A stretch of DNA of 64,000 nt from positions 248,001-312,000 of the forward strand of contig JAVKOQ020000029.1 of the NCBI GenBank assembly GCA_031835245.2, given 5' to 3'. This stretch comes from Balamuthia mandrillaris. Lineage: Eukaryota. Positions 27,381-63,500 of the stretch are shown piece by piece. Below the pieces are notes generated by a model, which had not been told where the DNA came from, did not search any database, and saw only the letters and a program-made list of their open reading frames with translations. The position numbers and the translations under genes were made by a program. Position 1 is the stretch's first letter. Each line of letters starts with the position of its first letter.

Positions 27381-30300
27381 ATGAGCCTTGTTCCGTATTC
27401 GCAACCTTCCCCTCCTGACTTCTTTCCCGATCCTGCTACTGAACATCCTGCCCCTTTCGCCGATACCCTCAACAGTGCCTACGTCAACACAAGTGCAAAC
27501 TTTACGGCAAGTCAGTATTGGGAACACCAGGCGCATCCTTCTTGGACTTTGGAAGATACCAAACTATTACAAGAAGCTGTTAAGATACACGGTCCTGACT
27601 GGAAGCGTGTAGCGGATACTCCTTTTTCTCGGGCGCATGGTGCAGAGGTTTGTCCCTTTTCGTTTTTCTTTCTTTTTCATCTTTTAACAACCCGTCTCTT
27701 GTTTCGTTCTTGTCTAAACAATAGGAGTGTCACGCACGCTATCAATCACTAGTTAGCGTTTGCAACGCCCATTTTGTACAGAGCATGGACCCCTTCGACG
27801 AAGACAGGGGCACCGACCATAACTTTCACGACTCGACCGCCATCGTGGACATGAGTAACTACGTTGTCGGCGGGGAAGACAATGACGATGAAGACTTTTT
27901 GTGTGGTGCTGATGAGGACGCTCCATCGCCCATGGCAACTACCTCAACCTCCGCCTCAGCATTCTCTTCACAAGAAGACGAAGAGGAAGAAGGAGAGACC
28001 GACCCATTTGCAGGAATGGGTGATCCAACGTACAGTAACGCCGACGAAGACAAGCCCTCCGAGTCTAAGAGCTGGAAGGAGAACCGGCGGCGAGCTTTGG
28101 GATCCAATAGCAACCTCTTTAAGGCCAACTCTCAAAGCAGTTCGATGGATGATCTTGCGCAAGCGTTCAAGGATCCCAAGCTCTATCTCTCACTATGCCA
28201 AGAAGAGTCTCCCTCTCCTCCCTCTACCTCCTCTTCTCACTCGAACCTACCTCAGTTCGAGGACCTACTCAAGCTCGACGGTTCCTCCTCTGATCACTCT
28301 GCAATGCCCGAAGAGGATGGTAGTTCTCCGCACTTAGGCGGCGCGGGTGATAAGGGTCATGAAGCCGGTGTTGTTGAATATCCCATGAAGGCGCCCATGC
28401 TATCGACGATAAACGAGATGCCGGAGGAAGGACTTTCCAAGCAACTTATAGACTCGTCTTCATCTCCTACGTCTTCTTCAGCCTCAACGATCACCATAAC
28501 GAGTCCCTCTCAATGCCCGTCCCTGGGTGATACCATCGCCTCGGCTTCATCTTCTCCATCATCCTCTATTCAATCTTCTCTTCTCTCTGGTTCTGCTGCA
28601 GATTCAATTGCCATTGGGCCTACCACACAATTACTTTCGCAACCTACATCAGCATCTCCTTCTTCCTCTACTCCCTCAACGCTGAAGATAACTACTTCAG
28701 CACTTAAGAGAAAGAGCTCTGAGGAAACCAAGAAATCCACTTCTTCCTCTTCTCCCTCAATCAGTACCTCTTCTTTGCAATCAAGTTTGAACAACAAAAC
28801 AGGAAACAATAGCAGTATCTCCAACAATAACAACAACGCCAAAGGACTCAAGAAAAGACAAAGGAAGCGTCGAACAGCAGCTGAAATTGAGCGGAAGTTC
28901 AAGTGTGAGATGCCTAGCTGCTGCAAGTCCTACGGCTCTGAAGGCGCCTTGAAGATGCACATTAAACTGAAGCATCCAGGAGCAAAACAACCCAGCCTCA
29001 AAGTGACCCCCGGCCATCGAAACCCTCTTCATCCGCTCCTCCTCAACATGAACATGAATATGAACATGAACATGAGCCAATTCATAGCTCCCTTTGGCTT
29101 GCCTCAAATGATGGTCTCTTCTCCCGTCTTTCCTCAACACATCCTTCCAGCCCCCCAACAGGCCACCAACAACAGTGCTGCCGCCGCAGCTGCAGCTGCA
29201 GCAGCCGCTGCTGCCAGCAGCAACAACGCTCTGATGACAAACATGGTGACCGCCCTTGGCGGTCTAAACGGCTTGCAACTAGGGGCTGGCCTTGCCACAG
29301 GAGTTAATCCATTTTGTGACTTGAACATGGGCCTCGCGCCGGCCACCCTTCAACAACTGTTATTTCCTCAACTGCTGGGAGCTGGACAGGCTGCATTCTT
29401 TGCTCCCCCTTCCACCGGTCTTCCCACTTCGAACGCAGATGGTTCTTCCCATCTCTCACCCACCCCCTTTTGCTCGACTTCATCGGCCACCTCGGCATCT
29501 GCGCCATCCACATCGCTACCGGTTTTAACCTCCCCATCGTCAGAGGAGGGAACTGTCCCAACCACGGCGGGTCCTGCTGGCTTGACGTTTGACACACGAG
29601 GCGCTTTAGATGCTGCCACTCTCTCGGCGGCTTTGACTTCGCTCAACACCTCTTTGTCTTCTCTGGCCCCCGACATGCACCAACCCAAGCAGCAACAATC
29701 TCAACAAGAGAACAACAATGCCAACCAAGAAAAGACTTCCTCCTCAACAGAAAAGGAGTTGGTTTACATCGACACAACCAAACAGTTGCAAAGAGAGCAA
29801 CAGCAGCAGCAACCGCAACAACAGCAACAAAAGCCGCAACAGCCGCAACAGCAGCAACAGCAAAATAAACAACAACCAGTTCCCCCCGAAGAAGCGAAAC
29901 AAAACGCGGAGGCGGAAGCCATGGTAGCTGGGCTTTTGTCTACCGATGTTTATGCTCCTGAGAACAGCGCAGCCAATGGAGGTAGCGACAATTCTTTCTT
30001 CCAACAAGTGACTATCAAGTTGGAAAAGGAAACAAATGCAACGAACGATGAAGTAACAAGGATGGCAACACCAGAGCACGCGGAGGGAGGACAACACACC
30101 ATGGAAGCAGAAACGGCAGTGGCCTCACCCATTGAGGAGCATCAAGCTTCCGTATCGTCCCTCGAGCACGAGCCCGTTCACGATGAACAAGATGAACACG
30201 TGGACCATCATGCCTTTCTCACTTTGGAAGAGGAGGACAGAGGTCTTAATCTGCACGAACTCCTACAGAAGAGGCACCAAATCAAGCTGGAGAGACTGGA

Positions 30301-31621
30301 AGAACTTGGCCAATCGGACGTATTGCACCCCTTCATGATGGACGTGGAAGGCTCCATGCTCAACAGTGCAGCTATCAAGAAAACTTGCGAAGAGAGCGTC
30401 AACAGTACCACCAGCGGTTTAGGTAACTCTACAGGTCTGTTGCCTTCCTTCTATGCCCCCTCCAATCTGCTCTCCCACAGCCGCTTGAAGCTCAGTTCCT
30501 CCGACATCCACTCGGACGCGTTTTTCACTTCGTTTGCTCCTCCCTCGCCCACCATGTTTCCCTCCGTGCCCTCCTCCCTCTCCAACTCTGCCGTGTCTAT
30601 TCCTGCCTTTGAGTTTGCAGCTAACGCTCTTCAACTTGGAGAGGAGGCCGTCAGCGCCATGATGGCTGGTTACGGCGAGGAGGAAGGCATACATGCAGGA
30701 CCTCTGCCTAATGTGGAGACCCTCCTCATGCTTGCTGAGGAGGAGTACATGCATACACAGTACGCCATGGAGACCGCTGGTCTCAATGCCAGCGCTGTTC
30801 CAGTCCCTCCACGACAGGACTACTCCCTGCCGTATCTCAAGTTAGAGATAGGGTCCTTCTCGCATCAGACACAACCAGAGAACCACACGAAAAAAGGAGC
30901 GGCGAGGGCAACCTGCACCATCCACTTCCGATATGACAGCAAGGCACTGGAGTATGAGCTGCGCAGCTCTTCCAAGCGGGAGCTTGGCGACGGTGTCTAT
31001 GTGCGTTGCCCCTTTGAACACATTGTTGGGTTCGGGTTAGAGCAGAAGCCGGATCGAGACGTACTTATCATCGAGTTTGCACGGCCGCCATCCATCTGCC
31101 CTGCTGACAGGCCTCCCCAACAGAACTCCTCCTCCAGAAGAAAACGAAGACAGGGGTTGTCCAAACGGGCGGCTGCTCTGTTGGAGCTCTCTCGAGAGGA
31201 GGTGGGTCGTTGCAGGAGGCATGTCCTCCATTTCAGCAAAGAGCAGCTGAACTACCCATTGGAGATTCTTTTAGCCTGTGACATGCGGCTGAGGGAGCTC
31301 GCTCAGCTCGGATTGCCTCCAATCACGAACCCATTCTTCCCTGATGCTTGTCTTCCCTCGCAGCACAACGTTCTTCACCAGTTCCATCATGTTCATCCAC
31401 CTGCCCCCGTTCAGGAACCATCCTCCTTCCTTCAACTCCATCACTACCAACCTCCTTCTACTAGTACAGTTGGCGGAAATCCATCTTCGTCCTCATCTTC
31501 CTCTTGTTCCTCTTCGGCGTCGTTATCCATGTCTTCGTCGGCGGGAGAGAGCGGCTTGATGAGCTGTGTTGGCACGGATGACTTTGTGGTGGGAGAGCCT
31601 TTCTCTGCATTTGCCTCTTGA
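27381..31621 (+). CDS. Putative transcription factor: Myb/SANT-like repeat, C2H2 zinc finger and C-terminal PH-like domain
   Basis: WTLEDTKLLQEAVKIHGPDWKRVA (Myb); CEMPSCCKSYGSEGALKMHIKLKH (C2H2); poly-Q and poly-A tracts; C-terminal LEIGSF...IEFARPP...RRHVLHF. Confidence 0.85.
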
Positions 31622-37109: not shown

Positions 37110-39327
37110 CGTACAGCTGTAAAGGGCTTGGAAGAGAGACATAAAAGTCCAGAAGACAGAAGCGAAGAAAATGAATCCAAATCGTTCGCTAATGGCCTCT
37201 TCCTTGTAGTCCATTTGGAACCAGAATATGCTCATGATGAAGGTCATGGCCAATACCTGCAGAACGTTGAGCTTGTTGAAGACCTCTCCTTTCTGTTGTT
37301 TGAAGTTTCGCTGCGCAAGCACCCACGTTTGCGTCCAAAAGGAGGTTGGGAATTTATGTTTCTCATATGTCTTGTCGCGACTTAATTCGAACTCGGGCTG
37401 AAAGCAAGACGACAGAAGTACTAGTTAGCGAAAAAACAAACAAACAAACAAACAAACAAACAAGCAAACAAACAAACAAACAGTCAACGGAGCAATCGCC
37501 GAACCTCTTTCGAGTTGTTGTGTAAAAGCGAGTTATGTTCTTCTTCTTCCTCTTTGTAGTGCTCAATAAGTAGTTGTTTGACCGGCTTTCCGTCATTTGT
37601 CTTTTCTTCTGTTGTTAATACTTCCACTGTATCATAAACAAAATGCGCGTTAGCAATATACGCCCAAAAAGGACATAAAAGGAGGATGGGAAAGAGCGTA
37701 CGCAAAAAGTCAGCTGGATTGTAGAATGGAGAACAAGAGTATCCCAAACGCGAGAAATAGGCAACGGCATCCTTGGCCGGTCCATAATAGACGATATGTC
37801 CATCGGCTAGCAACAGCACGTTGTCAAACATTCCATACATGGCGCTGCTCGGCTGGTGAATAGTTGTTATCACTGTTCGTCCGCTAGGACATTTGGCAGA
37901 GATATCCAAATCAGCTTCTATTTCCGTAGAGAGAGTGTGTGTGAGATTTACCTTTGAGCAAGAGCTTTCATGGTATAGACCAGGCTAAGGGCAGTGGAGG
38001 AGTCCAATCCAGACGTTGGCTCATCCAGCAACACCAAAGAAGGGTTCATCAGGAGCTCGTTCCCAATGTTGGTGCGCTTCCTCTCTCCACCGGAGACACC
38101 CCTCTGAAATGGGCCTCCGATGATGGTGTTGGCGCACTTCTCGATGGACAACTCCGAAATCACCTCCTCCACCCTCTGCTTCTTTTGCTTCCAGGTGAGG
38201 GAGCGTGGCAGCTTCACCAACGCCGTGTATGTGAGGGTCTCTCTAACGGTGAGATTGGGGAAGAAGACGTCATCCTGCAGGACGTAGGCCGTTTGTCGCT
38301 TGATGTTCTTCTTGGGCTTCTTGCCGTTGATGAGGATCTGGCCAGTAACGTTCTTCTTGGTCCTGCCAGCCAGGATGTTGAGGAGGGTGGTCTTGCCGCT
38401 GCCCGTTGGCCCCATGATGGCCAGCAGCTCTCCTGGGCGGATGATGCCATTCAGGTCAAACAGTATCTGTCGCTTGGCTGTGGGCTTGGGCATGAAGGGG
38501 ATTTTGTTCTTGATGATGGGCCATAAGCCCTTTGGCGGGATGGGGTACTCTATAATGTAGTTCAGGTTCCTGAACTCCAGGGTGGTGTTGGTGCTGGGCT
38601 TGTGGAGGGAGATCTTGGACTCCTTCAGCTTGCCCATGCGTTGGAGGCGGCTACGTAGGTCCTGTTCCTCCTTTTCCAGCATGCGCTGTTGCTTCTTGCT
38701 CCACCCCCTTGGTCTTCCTTCCCCATCTCCTCTCTCCTCTTTTTCCTCCTCATCCTCCGAATCATCGTCATCGTCGTCGCTATCGAACATACGCTCTCCT
38801 TTCTCCTTGAGTTTATCAACTTTGTCAGCCTTTTTGGAAACGTCCGTTTGCGTGAGGATAAACTGCGTCGTGTCTCCTCTAACATCTTTGATGGCCTCCA
38901 AGCCGATTACCGCCCAATAGGGGCTCCCTCCCGCATCCTGGCAGAGCAGCCTTCCTTGCCAGCTCTTCTCCGAGTCCAGGGCCTGCTGGAGGGGGTTGTT
39001 CCTCACCCCCTCTCCCTTCCCGCCTCCCCTCAAAAACTCCAACTCACCCAGCCGCCGGCCGGCCGCTTGTTGCCCGCTCATCCCTGTCATGACCTCGAAG
39101 CCCCGGTCCACGTAGAGCACGCGCTGCTGGGAGTCGGCCACGGCCATGCCATGCGGCATCTCCTCCAGCTTGAAGGCCAAGCGGTCGTTGATCTGTGTGC
39201 CGGTGGAGGGGAAGGCCTCATCCTCGGAGGAGGAGGAGGACGCGGGGACCACCTCTTTGAGCTCCTCTATCTCCTCCTCTGTCTTGGGGGCCTTGACGGA
39301 AAGGGACCTCTTCTTTGGCTTGCCCAT
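36411..39327 (-). CDS. ABCG (White-family) half transporter with N-terminal PAS/PAC domain
   Basis: Walker A GPTGSGKTT, signature VSGGERKR, LLDEPTSGLD, TIHQP, and a C-terminal TMD. N-terminal region PHGMAVAD...LYVDRGFEVMTG...YW...TQTDVS is PAS-like. Confidence 0.93.
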
Positions 39328-39813
39328 TTTGTGTGCGTGTGTGTGCGGTGACCTTTTTTTTTTTAAAAAATTCTTCCAAAGAAGAGAGAGAGAGAAGCAA
39401 GCAGCACGGAGAGAAGGTGGTTGTTGAGAGTGTTATGTCAAAGAAGAAGAAGTTGAAGAAGAAAACGAAGAATTTGACAAGAAGAAATTGATGGTGGGGA
39501 TGATGCTCCCCGCCGTCACCTCCTGCCTGCGTGAGGATATTGAGATTGCTGACGAAGAACAAAAGGAGGGAGAGCTACCACGGAGTGGCAAGCTTCCTTT
39601 CGGGAAATAGCAAAGCGGGGGATTTGATATTTGCGTTCTTTTCCGATCAGTTTTCTGCGCGGAAGCTAAGTATGCTTTGAAAAAGGAAATTTACACTAAT
39701 TTGATTTCGCCGATTGCAATTTCCCCCCTCGAAGATGATTTTTGCGGACATTTGGATCTCCCTCATGTCGTCGTGAAAAATTAACAATTCAAATAGATAA
39801 AATAAAATAAAAG

Positions 39814-51267: not shown

Positions 51268-54200
51268 TTACAAGCGAAGACAAGCAATCTCCACGGCATT
51301 GCAAGCGCTGACCGTGTTGCGAGCCAATGTCTTGGCGCACTTGACGAGCTGCGCCTTGATGCCGGCATCATAGCCGCCAGCCGCCTTGACCGCCGTGATG
51401 ATCTTCAGCTGGGTGGTGATGTTGCGAATGGCGTGGGCCACGCTCATCACCTGGTCACGAAGAATGGGGTCCTTGCACTTGTCGGCGATCTCCTTGCAAG
51501 CATCAAAGATGTTTTGGACGAGGGCGGCGATCCTGCGGGCACTCACGATGATCTCGCTGTTGGCAGAGCGAGCGGCAGCGTCGGACATGAGGGCCATCTC
51601 CTCGGCGATCTTCCTGCTGGCAGCGTAGAGGCGACCCTCGGGGGTGCTCTCATCGATGAAACCCTTGCTTTGCACCACTTTCTCGACGGAGCGAGCGGCC
51701 TGCATGATCTCATCGGTGGGTTCCTCTTCCTCCTCCTCTTGAGGCTTGCTGACCAGGGCGGCCTCAGTCTTAGCGTTGATCTTAAAGGTGTCGTTGAGCA
51801 ACCTTGCCAACATCTCAGCGGCCTCTTCCTCGCCGCCAGGACGGAGCAGGGCATCACGGATAGGGCCAAGCAGGTTGCTAAGGCCGTTCTGAAGGGCTAA
51901 GGCAGCCTCGATAAGGGCCTTCTTCTTGGCGGGATCGTTGGAGCGAATGCCAAGAGCGCGGGCGAGGGCGGCTTGCCTGCGCATGCCTTTCTCCAGCTCA
52001 TCGAGGGCGCGAAGAGCGGCCTCTCTGTCTCCGTTGCGAGCGGCGTTCAACATGTCCTGCATCAGCTGAGTGGTATCCTTGCCGCTGCGCAGCAGCTGTT
52101 CCTCTCCGTCGGGGTGAGACTCGGCCACGACGGCGGCGTTCAGCTCTTTGGCCTTTTGGACGGTGTCGTTGAACTCCTGTTGAGCACGGGAGTCATCTGG
52201 ATGAGCCAAAGCGTTGTTGGTCCGGTCCTTCAGCTCGTAAGGAAGCTTCTCCAAGGCGTCCGCCAATTGCAGGAGGGTCTTCTTTTGGTTGGGATCAGTG
52301 CCAGGGAGAGCAGCTAAAGCTCTGGCAAGAGCGGCTTGCTTGAGGAGGGCCTCTTCGGCATCGTGAAGAGCGTCCACGGCGTCCTGGCGATTGCCACGAC
52401 GCACAGCAGCTTGCAGCCTGTCCAATGCATCCTCTGCTTCTTGGCTAGCATCGAGGATCTTGTCCTTGAGTTGAGGCAAGGCCAGACCCAGCAAATCTGT
52501 TGCTGCTTTATTCAGATCGTCGGAGGCGTCCTTCAGCTTGGCATGAGAGGGATCTCCGACTGCTGCCGCATTGTAGCCACGGATAGCTTTCTCGAGGTTG
52601 ACTACTGCCTTTTGTACAGCGCCAGCATCACCGCCATTCCCACGAACAACTTCAGGAGCAAGGAAGGCTTGCTCCTGTGCGGCGGCCACCACGTCACGAG
52701 CTACCTGATCACTTTGCTGTTTGGGAGCACCCGCAGCAAGGACAGTGGGCAGTTTGGTTGCTCCTTCTCTCATGTCGTTGTAGGCCTTGAGCAGAAGGTC
52801 ATCGTCGCTGGGACGAACGGCGGCGGCACTGCGATCGGCAGCATCTCGGGCATTGGCGATATGTTCTTTGGCCTTGCCTTTTGCTGCCTGGTCCCTGGGG
52901 TTGGCCAAGGAAGCCTTGACTGCTGCTGGCATGCGACCAAGTACCTCTTCCAGCTCGTGTTGAGCACGAAGAAGGCTTTCCTTGCGTCTGGGGTCGTGCT
53001 CTTTGGCGGCTTGGTTCTTAACCAACGCGATTTGTTTGATGAGTCCCTTTTCTGCATCGGAGAGAGCAGCCTTGCCGCGCTCCCTGTCCCCATCGTCCAC
53101 AGCACGTTCCAGGTCATCCAGAGCGCGACGCAGGGCCTTGGCGTTCTCAGCGATTTGTTGCTTGATGGGAGAAGTGGACAGCTCAGCAATGCGGTTGTTG
53201 GCGTCGGCGGCATCTCGGAGCAGCTGCTCGAGCTTGGCCTGAGCAGCTCTATCTCCAGCCATTGCTTTACGAGCAACGGGCTCGATCTGTCTTGCCACTT
53301 CCTCGAGGTCCGCGATGGCCTGCAGCAGCTGTTCTTTCTTCCAAGGATCGGTCTCCTTTTCAGCCAACTGTCTGGCAAGCATCAGCTGCTGATTGATAGC
53401 ATCCTTGAGGGCCTTCACGGCAGCCTCTGCCTCCGCAGTATCTCCGTCGCGTACAGCCCTGGCCAAGCGCTGCAACAGCTCATTAACGGCAGCAGTTGAA
53501 GCCAAGATCTGATCTTCAGGAGCAGTGGTGGCTGATACTAGTTCGTTGTTGGCGGACTTGGCCTGAGCCACCACTTCGGCCAGCTGTTCCTGCTTGCGCT
53601 TATCTCCAGGAGAAGCTGCTGCCGCCGCTGAAGTACGGTCCAAAAGGGGGACAAGGTTTTGGAGGGTATTGGCTGCCCGTTCCACGGTCTCTCGCAGGGT
53701 AACGTTGTCGGGCATGGCTGCGGCTTGGTATTGCTTTACTAAATCTATCTGCTTGGGAATATCCCTCTCAAGCTGTTTGTTGAGCTTGGCGGTGCTCTCT
53801 TTGTCTCCACGTGTCGCCTCGTCCTGCAATTGGTTTAAGCGAGAGTTAATGGACGTGGCACCTTCCACGATTTGCTCTTCGGGGGCGAGGGTAGAGGCCG
53901 CGGAGAGTGCATGCACAGCGCTTCTGACATCTTCCACGGCATCGTCGAGGCTGTTCTGCTTGGCTTTGTCTCTTGGGGCCAGCAGAGTGTCCTTCGTGGC
54001 TTTTACCAGCTGAGGCGTGAGGGCCTTGAGCTGGGCGCTCTGTTCCTGGGCATGCTTGGTAGCCCATGCAGACACTCCGTCCTCGCCTTGCTTTTGTTGC
54101 TGGTTCTGGACCAACGCGTTGGCCAATTCCATCTGAGAGCCAATCCTGCGTACAACTTCCTTGACAGCGGCGGTAGCGGCTGGGTTGTTGCCCGCTTTGG

Positions 54201-56772
54201 CCTCCTGAGAAAGCTTGTCCAACTCCTTGTCAATGGCTAGGGCCAGCTGCTGGATCTTGTCTTCTTGGCTGGGAAGCGCCTTCTGTATGTCTGTGTTGAT
54301 AGCCTTAATGTTGCGGCTCACTGTCTCCAACTTTTCTCGCTGACGAGGGTCATTGGGATTGGCAATGGCACCTGCAGCTACGCTGCGGAAGAGCGGCGTT
54401 ACGCGCTCCATCTCGAGAGCCAATCTGCCTAATTGATCCTTTCTTTGCAGATCCTCCTCCTCGTCTTGCAGTTTGCGTAGCAGTTCTACTTCCTTCTCCA
54501 AGCCCTTCTCCACATCTCGGGTGGCCTTCTTGGCGCCAGCCCTGTCTCCTTTATCCAAACCATCGGCCAGACGATCCAAGCCCTCGTTTACCGTCTCTGT
54601 CACGTCTCTAAGTTCTTCCTCGGTGGATGGATGAGAAGCATCCTCGATCTCTCTGAGTATGCTTCCAATCTCTGCCAACAGTTGGTCGAGCTTGGCTTGA
54701 GCGGCCTTATCACCAGCCAAGGCAGCCTGCAGAAGTTAAAGAGGTAATTTAGCTTACTGCCGAAACAAACCAATGCAAACGAGAAGAGAGGAAAGGAGGA
54801 GGAGGTTAGGTACAGAGAGAACACAAATAACTCACCTTTGTAAGAGGAACCAATTGGTTTTGTATTTCCTCCAAGCGAGCAATTGCGTTCTCCAGCTTTT
54901 GCTTTCGAACAGGATCCTTGCACTGATCGGCCAGAGCTCGTGCGGCCGCGATCTGCTCTGCAAGTCTCTCCCTGGCCGCCTTCAGATGGATGGCAGCGCC
55001 CTGCACATCCCTATCCTGAATTGCACGCTGCAGCAGCACCAACTCAGCCTCCAGCTCTTGTGTTCTCTTTCTAAGGAGCTCGTCAGGAGAAAGGGTAGCA
55101 ACGTCCACCAGACGAAAGACTGCTTCACGCATGTCTTGCACGTCCTTGCGAAGCTGTTCCAAAGTTTGAGCCTGACCAGGACTGGCCAAGGAGGCCTTTG
55201 CTGAGTTCATGAGCTCAGGGTTGAGTTTTTCGATAAAATCAACTTCCTCGTGGATGAGGGTAGTGGTGTGAAGGTCTTCTTCCGTATCAGCAATAGCGCG
55301 AGCTATGCCAGCCACACTTCCTACCTCCTCCGAGACAGTTCGCATAGTATTGGCTCCTCGCATCTTGTCTCCGTCCTCCGCATTTTCGCGCAGTTGCACG
55401 AGATGGGCATCCAGCTGTCTAGCCAACTCTATCAGCTTGTCCTTGGCCGATGAGGAGAGCACGCATGCTGCCAATAATGCTGCGCTTGCTTGCTTCGTTT
55501 CCTCGCAGAGGTTTTCCAAGCAAAACTTGGCGGAAGGATCGTTGTTACGCTGAAGTGAGGCTTTAGTGGCGGGAGTAAGATCGGCAGGCATTTTTTCTAC
55601 TTCGTAGCAGGCGTGCAGGATGTCAGCTTTGCTGTTGCTATCGGAGCAGTCCTCTCCTATAATGGTGGCAATATCTATCTCTCTCGTGATGGCTCCGTTG
55701 ATCATGTGTAGCGCGTTGGCTGACGCTGGGGCATCCTTTCTTCCCACCGCCTCCTGCAGAAGCGTTAATTGGTGTAAGATCTGTTCATGGCACTCACCTT
55801 TGTAAATAAGAAAAACATAAAACGAGTCAGTATAGAACAACTACCGTGCAAGGGACAAAGGCTCTCATAATCAATAGAAAAGAAGAAAGGAAAGGCGAAA
55901 CAGGAAACAGAGGAAACAACAGGAAACAACAATGATAACAACGGAAAGAGAGAGAACGAACGAAGATCTTGAATGGTGGGTCTCTGCGCAGGCTCAAAGC
56001 CCAAATCGACAGACTCAAACATGGTCTTGCAGGAGAGTTGTGCCACCTGAATAATCTCGTCAAGAGCCGCATCAAGCTCTTTGGCTAGGGTGCGGTGCTG
56101 GTTCTTGGCAGTAAGGGAGAGCGGGTCCCGAAGGACGTCTCCCATGGCCTTGACGAGGCTCTGCGTGTGTGCCTTAACTAGAGTGTTGGCCTCCTCCAAG
56201 CGGCGGCGCAGCACGGGGTCCACCAAGATCTGCACTCGAGCGTGAACTAGCTTGACCATGCTCACCACTGAGGAGGAGAGCGCCCTAGCCACGTCCATCA
56301 TCTGTTCTGAGGAGGCGGTGGAGGCCGGCGCGGTGGAGCGGGCCACCTCTTCCTTGCAGCGCTGCGCCGCTTTGACCAGTTTGATCACGTCATACTTGTC
56401 GGCCAGGTGAAGCTCCCTGACGGTGCCCTGCAAGACGGCCTTGGCCGAGCGTAGCAGCAGCCGTTTGGAATCTCTGTCAAAGGGGTCCACGCTGAGGTTG
56501 CGCGCCGCTTCCACAATGCCCTCCGTAGCAGAACGGATCTCGTGGGCAGAGTCGTGCATTTTGGATTGGAGCTTGGCCTCGTCGCCGTACTTGCTGGCCA
56601 TGTCCTCGGCGATATCCACCAGCACCAAGACGGCCTGTTTGACGGCCTCGGCGCCTGGCGCGATGTTGGGCAAGGTGCTGTTGTTCTCCTCAGCCTCCAC
56701 AGAGAACAGGACCAACTGCGTTACCGCGTCGGCCACCGCCTCCAGCACTTGCTCCATTCCCGTTTCAGCCAT
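51268..56772 (-). CDS. Vinculin/alpha-catenin family protein, about 1743 aa, three exons
   Basis: N-terminal EQVLEAVADAVTQLV...LPNI; repeated helical bundles; vinculin tail DEIMQAA...CKDPILRDQV...TTQLKIITAVKA. Exons 56772-55962, 55797-54836 and 54726-51268 join in frame. Confidence 0.85.
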
Positions 56773-57171
56773 CTGTTTCTTTGTTTTTTTTTGTGTGTGT
56801 TTATTCAAAAGTAAAAGCGAGTTAAACAGAGCGAGTAGCAACTATTCCTGAGAGAAGGCTGTACCACTGCTTCCTCTCCCGACAAGCCTTTTTTTTTCTC
56901 TCTTTCCTTGCCACACAGGAATACTAGAGAGCAGCAAAGCGCTGACCGAAAAGAAATCTATTTCAAAAAAAAAAAAAGTTAAATTGGAGTGTCCTGGGAG
57001 ATCAAATTGGCCAAACTTTGTGCAGAGATCTGAGGAGGGGGGTGATGTCCGTATTTCCTTTTATGAGGCGGAGTGACGTGTGCGGGGTGTCCCTTTGTCC
57101 ACCCGACAAGAAAAGTAAAGCTCGACAGAAGGTCGGGCAGGATAGAAGGGGGTCTGGTCAAGGCAACAAGG

Positions 57172-58372: not shown

Positions 58373-58444
58373 AAGAAGAAAGGAAGCGGTGGTAACGTTT
58401 GTTTGTTTTCTGTTTTTTTCGTTGCCCTCTTGGAGAGAAGAGAA

Positions 58445-59877
58445 ATGCAAGAAGCGCAGCAAGTGGAGGCACAAACGGGTGGGGTGGAGAGGTCCATAGT
58501 TCGTTTGGTTTGTTCGTGTCTTCGTCATTTTTTCTTCTTGAAAGAAAAGAACAACAACCAGCAGAAGCACAGAGAGAAGAAAGCGGTTGGAGCGTAAAAG
58601 AAATAGGGGACGGCAACCTCAACTTTGTTTATGTTGTCACTCGTCGCTCCCAAGATGGCCAGCAACAACAACAGGAGCGCAGCCTCGTCGTCAAGCAAGC
58701 GGTCCCTTATGTGCGAATGGTCGGCGAGAGTTGGCCTCTCTCCCCCGAACGGGCGTTCTTCGAGCATGAAGCACTGCGAGAGCAGCATCGACACGCTCCC
58801 GAGCACGTCCCTCGAGTCTTTCATTTCTTCCCTGGCCCTCACCATGCCACCGTCATGGAGTACCTTCCAAACGCCTCCTACCGTTCATTGCGTAAATCTT
58901 TGATTCGGGCACGAAAGCATCCAGCATTGGCTCCACACATGGCTCGTTTTCTCGCTCGCTCTTTGTTCTTCACGAGCGCTTTGTGTGAAGCGAATCGACA
59001 GCAAAACGATCGGTTGAGAGACATCTTTAACGGTAATCAACTCTATCGACTGACCCAAGCGGTCATCTTTGAGGAACCCTTCACACGAAACCACAAGAAC
59101 AACCGATGGACGTCACATCCGCTGCTGGACGAGGAAGTGGCGAGCATCCAAGCCAACGCTGCCCTCCTTCGGCGCGTGGAAGAGGCCAAGACAACATTTC
59201 TGACCCACAAAGAAGCTTTGCTTCATGCCGATCTTCACACCGGATCCGTTCTAGTGGGAGAAGGTGGCGGAGAAACCAAAGTGCTTGACCCAGAGTTTGC
59301 TTTCTTCGGACCTATTGCTTTTGATGTTGGCCAGTTTGTTGGCAACTTGCTTCTCGCTGTATACAGTCAGCGTGGCCTCGTTGAGAAGGAAGAGGAAGAG
59401 GAGAAAAGAAAGGATATGGAAGAATGGATCCTGACCGCCATCGAAGAACTATGGGACCGGTTTCTTGCTCTCTTTCGTGACTTGGTGGAACAGCACTCTT
59501 CCTACGGCTTGCTCTCTTTACCTTTGCATGAAGAGAAAGCTGGCGTGAAAGAAGGAAAAGAAGAGGAAGAAAGGATTTGGGAAGCCTTCACGACGCAGTT
59601 GCTGAAGGATGTGTTGGCGTTTAGCGGGGTGGTCATGATCAGACGGATTGTTGGCATTGCGCATGCGGAGGACATGGAGGTCATTCAACGGGTGGAGAGA
59701 AAGGTTGCCTGCGAGAGAAGAGCGCTTCGTATGGCTCAGCAGTTGATCCTCGCATCTCCTCCTTTTGACGAGAAGGAGAAGATAGAGGAGCAACAAGGCA
59801 CAGGAGGAGGAGCGTCTATGCGTGATGTGCTGATGGATGTTAGACGTTCTCTTCTGTTGGAGGATGAAGCTGACTGA
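58445..59877 (+). CDS. mtnK: S-methyl-5-thioribose kinase; start tentative
   Basis: EIGDGNLNFVY, VKQAVPYVRMVGESWPL, LLHADLHTGS, DPEFAFFGP, RRIVGIAH. Confidence 0.95.
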
Positions 59878-59909
59878 AAAAAAAAGAAAAAGAAAAAGGC
59901 GGTGTTCTG

Positions 59910-60060
59910 ATGGATTAAAAGTCACACAAGTGAGTAAACTCACAAAATGAAAGTTCTTGCGAGGATGTGGTGATGGGGTGGACTAGTGGGCTTCAGAAGC
60001 GCCCATCCACTTTCCCACCAGCACGCCCCCATTGGCTCCATCGGGCAACGCTGCGCAACA
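59910..60060 (-). ncRNA. Putative omegaRNA scaffold overlapping the Fanzor 3' end; boundaries approximate
   Basis: Nested stems 60010-60001 with 59991-59978; hairpin GTGAGT-tt-ACTCAC at 59943-59930; GATGGA (60042-60037) complementary to terminal TCCATC (59914-59909). Confidence 0.6.
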
Positions 60061-60425
60061 GAGGCTCCGGAGGAGTATGTTGCGCGCTCCATTTATGTCG
60101 CGATCCAGTCGTATCCCACAGTCCCTGTGTTTGCACTCGAAGATCCGCTCTCGTCGATTGTGTTGTTTCTGTTCGTGGGTCACACGGAGGCACCAGGTGC
60201 AAGTCTTACTGGTCCAAGCCTCCGATCGAACGTAGACCCTGGGCCCCATTCCCTCGCCTTGTGCATCAGCCACTGGCGGAATCGGTAATGGCCCCAGGAG
60301 TAGAGCATCCTGGCCGTCTTTTTGCCGATCTTCCTCCGCCGTCTCCCCCGGATGGCAGTCATGCCCTTTACACCAAAGGTGGGGATGATGACATGATCGT
60401 AGCGGCGGCACAGGAAGAGGGCCGT
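59983..60425 (-). pseudogene. Fanzor/TnpB RuvC-II, zinc finger and RuvC-III fragment with a 1-nt frameshift near 60241-60247
   Basis: FLCRRYDHVIIPTF...KTARMLYSWGHYRFRQWLMHKAREWG, then after the shift VYVRSEAWTSKTCTWC...FECKHRDCGIRLDRDINGARNI. Confidence 0.92.
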
Positions 60426-60587
60426 AAAGGCGGTGTTCTGCAAAAGAAACGCTAGGTGTTTTGCATGCCAAAGAAGAGAAACAAGGAAAGAGCAGAGGGA
60501 GAGAACGAAATGAAAGGCGTTCCTTTTAACAGTTTTTGTTGGTTTTATAAGGGTTTGTGTTGTTGACTATAAGAAAGAGAGAGAGTT

Positions 60588-63500
60588 TCACGATGTAGAG
60601 GAAGAAGCAGAAGCAGATAAAGAGGAAGGCCCAACTGTAACTTTCCGTCTCTTCCGATCAAAGCTTTTGTGAATGACCTTTGAGTGTTTAAGATAAGGAT
60701 CCTTCAGAAATAGAAACTCGAGGTCTTTGAGGTTAATCGTCCGACCGGTTTGTTGTTGCTGCGGACCAAGCGCTCGTCCTCTTGCTCCTCCCACCGTTGT
60801 GCCCGCAGCAGCAGAAGCAGGAAGATGTGATAACACAACGCCACTGCCACCAGCGGCAGCTGCTTTAGCGCTGGCTTTTTGTCGTTGCACCTGTTCTGTC
60901 ATTCTTCGGAACATCAGCGCAAGTCTCTCAAACTCTTGAGCCATCTCAGGGGTGAGAGTGCCGGCTTGCTTGGCTTGCTGTAGTTGTTGAAGTTTTCGCA
61001 AGTGTTCTTTCGTGAATGTGATTTGCGGTTGTTGTGATTGTTGTTGTTGTGATGATGGTGATGACGGGGGTGGGGGTTGGTTTTGTTGTTGTGGCTGAGA
61101 AGAAGGAAGATGACTTGTTGTGGCAGGGGTGGTTGTAGAAGCGGTGGGTCTTGTGCGAGGGCGGCCAATGTCGCCGATAGCTTGAAGGGCGGTTATGTTG
61201 GCGTGTCTGGTCCGAATCCTTTCTTCTTCTTCGTGGCGTCTTGCTTGTGTTTCCCGATCTCCTCCTTTCTTGCTGCTATCATCCTGTTTATTTATAGTCA
61301 GTTTCTCTCCATCTAATTTGAAAGTGAGAATAGCTAAAGTAACCTTTAATCCTTTTAGTTTTTCTTTTTCTTCAGCGTCTCTTTGCTCTTGTTCTTCCCG
61401 TTCTCTCTTTTCTATGAGTTGCAATTGTCGCCGTGGATCTGATGTGATGGTTATCTTAAAGTCATCCTTCAACGTATCCTGCCGCTGCTGAGAAATGATG
61501 GCGAGCTGTTCGATGATATTCCGTAAACGTTCCTCCACAGCACAGGTTAAATGATCGTACACTTCTTTATGAATTTGTTTCATTTGATGTATGCTTGCTG
61601 TTATTGATAAAGAGATAAATAAAATGGTGAGAAAACGCACTCACTGATGAAATGCAAAACAGAAAAAAGAAAAATAAGGATCGATCGTAGTCAGACTGAC
61701 GTGCAATTTCTCATCATAAAGATGCAGAGAAGCGATACTTTGTGTGTCATCATAAAGGATGCAAGAAGGAGAACATGAAAAAGAGGGAAGATACCAATTT
61801 CTACAACTTTTCTCCGTAAAGCCTCTCGTTGCAAAAAGGGACCTCGCGGGTCTTCTTCTGGCCACACAAGATCCATTCCCGAGTCCTTCCCCTCCCCACG
61901 CATAAATCGAAGGGACTCTTCCTTGAGATTGACACCAGCAAACTGCGTTACATCGTTCAGCTGTTTTAACGAAGTGGGTTGATCGGCATCTGCTTTTTTG
62001 CTCTCAGCTCCAGTCTTTTTGGCTTTGGCAGCGCTTTGTGTTGGTGCTCCTCCGCTAAGAATAAAAGAAAAAGCGAGTTAACAAAAAAGCTTTTGTAAAG
62101 CTGGCAGGTGGTCACTACCTTGAACTCAAATTATTCGCAGGAGGAGGTGGAGGCGGTTGTGTGAGTTGTTGTGAAGGTGTAGAAGCGGTTGAGCCAGTCG
62201 TGGGTGTTGTGCGTGGTTTTTTACTAATGGTGAATAAAAAGTAAATAACATAAACAAACCATAACAGCATTAGACGTTTGTGGGAGTTCAAAGGCTGGAT
62301 AACAAAGATAAAAGAACGGAGGGAGGGAGTCATACGCTGGAGGCTGTTTGATATCGGTGATAATAGGAGGATTAGAGACGTTGGGTGTTGGAGTGTTGAC
62401 AGTAGAGGAGGCGGTAGAAGGAGGTGGATGGATGGTTCCTCGTTTGACCATCCGAACGATGGGCTGCTGTTTATTTTGTTCATCGACGACGTTCGCAAAG
62501 GCTTGTGTGGGCGGCCGGCCCTGTTGATGTGATGGTTGCTGTGGTGGTTGTTGTTGCGGAATGGTAGTGCCTTGGGTAAGTTTGTAGGACGTTTGTGGAG
62601 GTGGTTGTTGCGGATGATGTTGTGGGTGCTGGGCGATAACGAGGAGAAATGGGCGAAAGAACGAAAGAAAAATGAGACAGAAACTGGCAACAATACAAGA
62701 AGAGAATTACGTACGGTGGCAGAGGAAGGGGTAGTAGTGTGTGGAGGGGCCTGAGTGGAGACAACACGGCTCTGTTGCGGGGCTCTTGGCTTGGAAAACT
62801 TTTTAATGAGCTCCATAGCAGTGGCAGGTCCAAGTGAGGCGCTCAGCTTATGCGTGAACTGCTCTTTGGTTATCTTTCCTGCCTATTAAACATTCATCGG
62901 AGTCAGAATAACAAAACGTCATCATTTCTGAAGACGGAAGCGAACGAGACAAGAAGGAACACTTTACCTGCAACTCACTCAAAAGATGTCTAAGCACGTC
63001 TTGGTAGTGTTGAGTCACTGATTGTGTCGTATGAGCAGTCAGAGGAGGAGGGGCTCCTCCTGGAGGAACGCCAGTGGCAACAGAAGGAGCAGGAGAAGAA
63101 GAGGGTGGCAGAGCAGTAACATGCGGCCGATGAGCGAGTGCAGCGCTTCTAGCAGCCGCTGCAGCTGCTGCACTGGCCGCGTTGGTGGTAGTAGCTGTCG
63201 AGTAAGAGGAGACACCGGAAGGAGCAGTTGATGTTGCAGAGGAGGTTACGGGCATGCCTGTAGAATGGAAGTTTGTGGTGGTGGCTGGTCGCTGATGAGA
63301 GAGTTGAGCAGCAGTTGTGTGTTGTGGATTAAGATTCGTAGCAGCGGGTGACATTGTTGTGGCTCTGTGTGCAGTAGCAGTGTAAGAAGGGGGAAGACCG
63401 ACGCGTTGTTGTGTAGCAGTGGCCAGGGGTTGTTGTTGTGGCGGCCGTGCTTGTTGTGTTGTTTGCTGTGGCGTCAGAGAGGTTGGTGGTTGTCTTGGTG

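Follow-up and report, generated by a model that had tools for sequence, protein, structure and literature searches.

A 12-bp duplication beside a truncated IS607-type Fanzor2 element of Balamuthia mandrillaris as a candidate scar of early-stopped Fanzor homing

IS607 elements recombine over a shared dinucleotide and leave no duplication (PMC6188088), and none was found at the eukaryotic IS607 copies covered in the available text of PMC3673617. The question raised by the locus presented here is how a truncated piece of such an element came to lie between two copies of a short direct repeat in the genome of Balamuthia mandrillaris.

In the window, that is, the whole 64-kb stretch of DNA analysed in this work, an exact 15-bp direct repeat occupies 59895-59909 and 60426-60440, extends no further on either side and encloses 516 bp. 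The repeat pointed out in the initial annotation is thereby confirmed, and it is the sole non-simple one among the 34 exact direct repeats of at least 15 bp spaced by 100-1000 bp in the window, the other 33 being simple purine or pyrimidine runs. It lies in an intergenic spacer, 179 bp long without the insert, whose neighbours are a TAF4-family gene and, converging on it, an APH-family gene; the insert is found about 150 bp past the stop codon of the former and in the same orientation, and 17 bp separate the end of the latter from the repeat. No second copy of the element was found in the 64-kb window. Elsewhere in the window, a long minus-strand gene (51268-56841) encodes a series of helical bundles that match vinculin and talin weakly, a single minus-strand ORF (37948-39432) fuses a PAS domain to an ABC-transporter ATPase domain, and a 1297-residue plus-strand open frame (27725-31621) has no Pfam match.

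On its coding content, the insert is assigned as the 3′ part of an IS607-type Fanzor2 element. It encodes residues 340-485 of P0001 at 99-100% identity (tblastn), with a 1-base frameshift near 60243, most other copies having one extra base at 60242. P0001-P0005 are Balamuthia mandrillaris transposases by NCBI naming, and the family is placed with IS607-Fanzor2 because P0002-P0005 combine a serine-recombinase domain with the nuclease; the near-identical TnpA plus Fanzor2 records number five, and intact gene models are among the data. P0002 carries PF00239, PF12323, PF01385 (under the curated cut-off) and PF07282, and the window piece matches it at 88-92% identity. Additionally, a RuvC domain whose shifted glutamate immediately precedes the C4 zinc finger is present in alignment A1 together with the RD motif, and the nearest solved structure chain is 9b0l_P (E 3.8e-22), which we take to be the mimivirus Fanzor2. 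Longer copies continue past 60425 as coding sequence: loose contig ends occur there in X2 and X12, and X7 record 28 matches 59988-60425 with no other letters and one gap, and then runs on for 160 letters. At 59964, 59968, 59982, 59987 and 60242 the window is unlike nearly all aligned contigs, through either copy-specific changes or assembly errors; 59982 and 59987 fall in the long stem of the predicted fold.

The repeat also exists in an unfilled form. Among the pieces listed when four public DNA runs were aligned to 59300-61100, X12 record 9 covers 59302-59869 and 60426-61100 with 27 letters separating them, where 25 are expected with a single repeat copy; this is the empty allele that the initial annotation had advised looking for in other strains. 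The sequence is a true insertion and its repeat is real. The variants flanking the site share one contig depth in X1 (29.9) and in X7 (24.1), which suggests that the empty haplotype occurs in these runs too. Of the three DNA runs aligned at the filled right junction, X1 has it (depth 65), and it is absent from X7 and X12, so that X1 appears to hold both alleles, filled and empty. No full-length copy at this site was seen in the DNA runs aligned.

The right boundary of the element was determined by the loose ends of other copies. Among the rows listed for the mapping of the right end (59895-60014), these ends pile up before 59907 in 10 (X1), 9 (X7) and 10 (X12) contigs, as do those of 6 RNA reads (X22), and none of the 19 rows listed has its loose end at 59910. 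The consensus agreement at the 59907 ends is only 0.43-0.47 in the DNA runs, so many different flanks are joined there. The X1 depth is 7338 at 59907-59910, drops to 914 and then to 65, and smaller groups of loose ends at 59906-59903 fit chance extension into A-rich flanks. The right end of the family is fixed, as the initial annotation had proposed to check, and it is fixed at 59907, not 59910, with the CAG being part of the element. Therefore, only 12 bp are truly duplicated, and the element piece measures 519 bp (Table 1). The initial annotation had equated all 15 bp with the guide and had taken 516 bp as copied back; the repeat and the insertion of an element piece stand, whereas the first three bases of the supposed guide belong to the element, and the predicted guide starts at 59906, its first 12 bases being the duplicated ones. 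The empty site thus reads CAG and then target, and the filled site reads CAG, target +1 to +12, the 519-bp piece ending in CAG, and the target again from +1.

Table 1. Positions of the features at the insertion site, numbered from the first letter of the window
Feature	Position	Strand	Basis
TAF4-family host gene, last exons	60588..61640	-	PF05236 E 2e-28; ORF list
Host target CAG; predicted TAM and recombination core (AG)	60438..60440	-	matches the fixed right end of the family; TAM role inferred
Left copy of the 12-bp duplication (target +1 to +12)	60426..60437	-	repeat search; single in the empty allele (X12 record 9)
519-bp 3′ part of IS607-type Fanzor2 element; left end and TnpA missing	59907..60425	-	longer copies and right-end mapping
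Fanzor2 C-terminus with partial RuvC, zinc finger and stop codon	59983..60425	-	tblastn against P0001; PF07282 E 4e-11
Predicted omegaRNA scaffold	59907..60046	-	fold and pairing scan; function inferred
CAG end of the element (bases 1-3 of the right-hand repeat in the initial annotation)	59907..59909	-	loose-end mapping
Right copy of the 12-bp duplication; predicted guide bases 1-12	59895..59906	-	repeat and loose ends; guide role from IS607 TnpB/Fanzor2 papers
Convergent host gene, APH phosphotransferase family	58396..59877	+	PF01636 E 9e-13

CAG is found at both the element end and the target, which makes the common core dinucleotide AG in place of GG. On the strand of the insert (minus), the 179-bp empty spacer holds a single CAG, the target itself, the frequency of CAG in the window being 1.6%. 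With the right end fixed at CAG, the expectation of a TAM resembling TTTTG is not borne out, as the TAM should end in CAG; moreover, T-rich tetramers fill 30 of the 176 spacer positions on that strand, amid which TTTTG is uninformative. As for the ends of the element, no terminal inverted repeats were found among the 25 of 85 pairs listed, the left end being missing from this copy. The last 40-60 bases (59907-59975) have a summed contig depth about 100 times that of single-copy DNA, which is a sum of depths and not a copy number, and several contigs contain only 50-70 bases of it, flanked on either side by unique DNA. This excess of right ends points to many short copies, probably mini elements, and a test for variable left ends is confounded because many of the short copies resemble a left end plus a right end.

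LINE copies typically show a 5′ truncation and a duplication of 12-15 bp, so that a LINE-type origin, in which target-primed reverse transcription starts from the 3-base CAG match and copies a Fanzor transcript, would account for the truncated 5′ side and the size of the duplication, and also for a right end far more abundant than the coding part, as measured by summed contig depth rather than copy number. However, the absence of poly(A) at this junction, which the initial annotation had noticed, was confirmed, and none was seen in the flank consensus of the other copies among the rows listed. RNA reads extend a median of 100 bases past the right end, although these are 6 reads and a weak indication; because they pass the element end, donor flank would be expected in a retrocopy, and this copy has none. 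Furthermore, the 8 window ORFs that were scanned include no reverse transcriptase. The LINE alternative, already raised by the initial annotation, is weakened by the lack of a tail and of donor flank and by these reads, and we consider it quite unlikely.

The right end of the element is also predicted to form the RNA scaffold of the nuclease. The predicted fold has a z of -3.23, with 0 of 200 shuffles folding equally well, and a 6-bp pairing of 60042-60037 with 59914-59909 would close the scaffold and leave the last AG unpaired. In a pairing scan of nine right ends, the best duplex lay two bases from the end in five, was tied in one and lay elsewhere in three, a weak result because some ends were chosen by motif and three are close kin. 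The predicted fold agrees with an element ending in CAG. In one bacterial IS607 TnpB, the scaffold ends in UCGG with the core GG (10.1101/2023.11.20.567912); a pairing close to the 3′ end is required (PMC10711439). By the same arrangement, the guide is predicted to begin at 59906 and the TAM should end in CAG. The truncated allele retains the whole scaffold downstream of TAF4 in the sense direction, and could supply a guide against the empty allele.

Based on these findings, we propose, with a probability of roughly 0.55, that the 12-bp duplication is the scar of a Fanzor-triggered homing event that stopped early, which is the most likely mechanism. First, a full element would have been inserted by TnpA at the target CAG without duplication, and through this duplication-free insertion the DNA beyond the element would have become the guide. 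Second, the Fanzor-guide complex would have cleaved an empty allele, on the sister or the homolog, at a point about 9-21 bases beyond the CAG. Third, the far end of this break could have entered the filled allele and used it as the template for copying back through +N to +1, followed by the right end and 519 bp of element sequence. Finally, the copying end would have been released and end-joined to the near end, which had kept the CAG and 12 bases. The cutting and aborted copy-back of the initial annotation are thus kept, with the guide start, the duplication length and the TAM replaced.

Several features argue for this mechanism. Since IS607 chemistry makes no duplication, the 12 bp require a second event, and the right junction, being exactly the normal IS607 junction on a CAG target, would place the normal insertion first and the repair event second, and strengthens the reading of a Fanzor cut followed by copy-back. 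The target +1 is rebuilt beside the right end, so the template must have carried the element at the same site; the Balamuthia genome has been described as diploid-like (10.1101/2025.02.25.640156). The asymmetry, wherein the right end is kept, the left end is lost and the TAM-proximal bases are doubled, is a prediction of aborted homing, and the simplest break is one encoded by the element itself. The known Fanzor2 TAMs are 3-base motifs ending in G, namely GGG, CCG and TAG, and the reported cuts lie at 9-14 and 17-18 (MmeFz2), 19 (NlovFz2) and 15-21 (ApmFNuc) (PMC10432273, PMC10530073); the +12 end of the duplication falls within the MmeFz2 range. For CAG as the target, the apparent left end of a short X1 copy is immediately preceded by CAG (loose end behind 59951), and an element copy in a RICTOR-like gene follows a Gln codon.

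There are also points against aborted homing. It is seen at a single locus with no donor seen, which cannot separate a Fanzor cut from other breaks. Two of the three characterised Fanzor2s cut beyond +12, so the model has to invoke trimming, and the truncated allele retains the CAG and a 12-base match to its own guide and might be re-cut, yet the product persists. A repair at a normal insertion site without Fanzor is to be weighed, wherein TnpA joins the right end only, or cuts the left end only, or a chance break occurs in the element, after which the free host end in CAG is extended by 12 bases on the sister, the homolog or the far flank and is joined inside the element. The exact CAG junction and the empty allele are accounted for equally well in this way. 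The 6-base word CACCGC, which the host end shares with the sequence that related copies carry immediately upstream of the left junction (at loose ends behind 60425), points to end-joining chemistry and is silent on what made the break; such a word is shared at 0 of 410 control positions, in a test designed post hoc and with related copies in place of the exact donor. CACCGC may have helped the joining, the product being not a clean microhomology join. However, repair without Fanzor needs two or three steps in comparison with one break, and gives no reason for a duplication length inside the Fanzor cut window, and we regard it as a serious but less likely alternative. End joining is known to leave filler insertions with short duplications, and the short duplication here would fit a piece of the element having been taken up as filler DNA where an unrelated staggered break was repaired; this is very unlikely, as the fragment ends exactly at the family terminus and on a matching CAG, a word with a frequency of 1.6%.

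Relatives of the element were also sought in viruses and metagenomes. No viral loci were found with P0002 alone as query, and 23 were found with alignment A1. In the giant-virus bin G003 (L030-L036), the Fanzor2 right ends are fixed at ATCAG in 7 of 7 copies, several of them short; none of the three copies with a visibly shortened left side repeats the right flank, which counts against a homing scar. The left ends of four viral relatives were sought and none was definable. The right-end pattern had 0 matches in viral contigs, and 4 metagenome matches were rejected as chance matches of 19-20 bases without a Fanzor. The two genomes searched for relatives have one copy each. The loci L016, L024, L018 and L027 represent a single family with ends in either GG or AG.

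Among known systems, the IS607-Fanzor2 elements ACa-1 and ACa-2 of Acanthamoeba and ISvMimi/ApmFNuc likewise combine a serine recombinase with Fanzor2 and a structured 3′ RNA (PMC3627910, PMC10530073, PMC3673617). However, they end in GG, with no target duplication reported in the available text of these sources, whereas the Balamuthia copy has AG, a duplication of 12 bp and no left end. The restorative homing of the IS607 TnpB of CboIStron is alike in that the target motif coincides with the TAM and the empty allele is the substrate (10.1101/2023.11.20.567912; PMC13565253). The scaffold end at the core dinucleotide is UCGG in CboIStron and UCAG in Balamuthia, and the CboIStron products are bacterial and complete, whereas the Balamuthia product would be eukaryotic and incomplete. 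In its available text, a 2026 review lists homing evidence for bacterial systems only, and none for Fanzor (PMC13565253).

The closest layout is that of CRe-1, -2 and -3, the Fanzor1 Helitron2 elements of Chlamydomonas reinhardtii, which occur as 5′-truncated, 3′-intact copies with duplications of 7-19 bp right after the target motif, TTTT; their full-length copies have no duplications, and Bao and Jurka explain this layout by one-ended transposition (PMC3627910). Craig tentatively ties the CRe duplications to Fanzor cutting (PMC10288648), and CrFNuc showed no cleavage in vitro. CRe-1 to -3 share the layout of the Balamuthia copy but differ as a Fanzor1 on a Helitron with a TTTT target. New here is this layout in an IS607-Fanzor2, the layout itself being already known, and the IS607 recombinase chemistry makes its interpretation sharper than for the Chlamydomonas Helitrons. 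No paper on a Balamuthia Fanzor or on Balamuthia introners was found in the literature searched, while Repbase and some supplements could hold the family; neither aborted Fanzor homing scars nor IS607 introners are described in the titles and abstract openings of that literature.

A further lead concerns the left end. In the gene model P0004, the whole element falls precisely where Gln843 meets Tyr844 in the uninterrupted RICTOR-like P0022, without gain or loss of a residue, a comparison at the protein level only, and 28 residues (84 bases), the first of them Val, precede the TnpA start. An X1 contig with about 45 right-end bases continues, on the element strand, behind 59951 with 23 bases that start GTAAGT and have CAG before them; these fit the codons of the first residues of the 28-residue peptide when a 2-base gap is allowed, and an X12 loose end behind 59944 (2 contigs) fits the next residues with small gaps allowed. 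The first left-end pattern was found in 0 of 82 donor-like host sites, and the two patterns 2 and 0 times in 128,000 bases; the control patterns were made after seeing the data, and the left end rests on one loose-end string and one gene model. This suggests that normal insertions read CAG and then GT...CAG, which supports CAG as the target, and such insertions would be spliceable GT-AG introns. Alternatively, the RICTOR copy may have entered a host intron that lies at that position, and no splicing is seen in the 6 RNA reads spanning a right end. GT-AG ends are found in one mini copy of about 68 bp, and the element right end (59907-59951, minus strand) resembles a spliceosomal 3′ splice site.

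It is thus a tentative idea, rather doubtful at present, that the family inserts after CAG, begins with GTAAGT and ends with a pyrimidine-rich tract and CAG, so that its sense insertions would be ready spliceosomal introns spread from allele to allele by Fanzor homing. The introner classes listed in PMC12130899 are TIR, LTR, non-LTR, Helitron and Crypton; IS607, Fanzor and TnpB are absent from its main text, as are Balamuthia and IS607 from 12 of its 14 supplementary files, as far as these are accessible. Introners and IStrons both have element ends removed from RNA, the likeness to introners being a lead only, and IStrons use a group I ribozyme, not the spliceosome.

In conclusion, homing has so far been demonstrated only with TnpB and IscB of bacteria. 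A scar with its start at +1 directly behind the TAM and its other end within the cut window makes the role of Fanzors in their own eukaryotic genomes testable by genome sequence alone, and would read out the TAM, predicted to be CAG, and the cut position without an assay. If true, the Balamuthia locus would be a rare footprint of RNA-guided homing in a eukaryote, and aborted homing would offer one explanation for the unexplained Chlamydomonas duplications. If, additionally, the introner reading is true, the GG core would have been swapped for AG to yield a spliceosomal counterpart of the bacterial IStrons and an intron source of bacterial origin, in which case dozens of mini copies, each about 70-100 bp long, would represent its new introns and the copy in the window would be a homing fossil. 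Should the GT-AG lead hold, this family would represent a bacterial insertion sequence turned intron generator.
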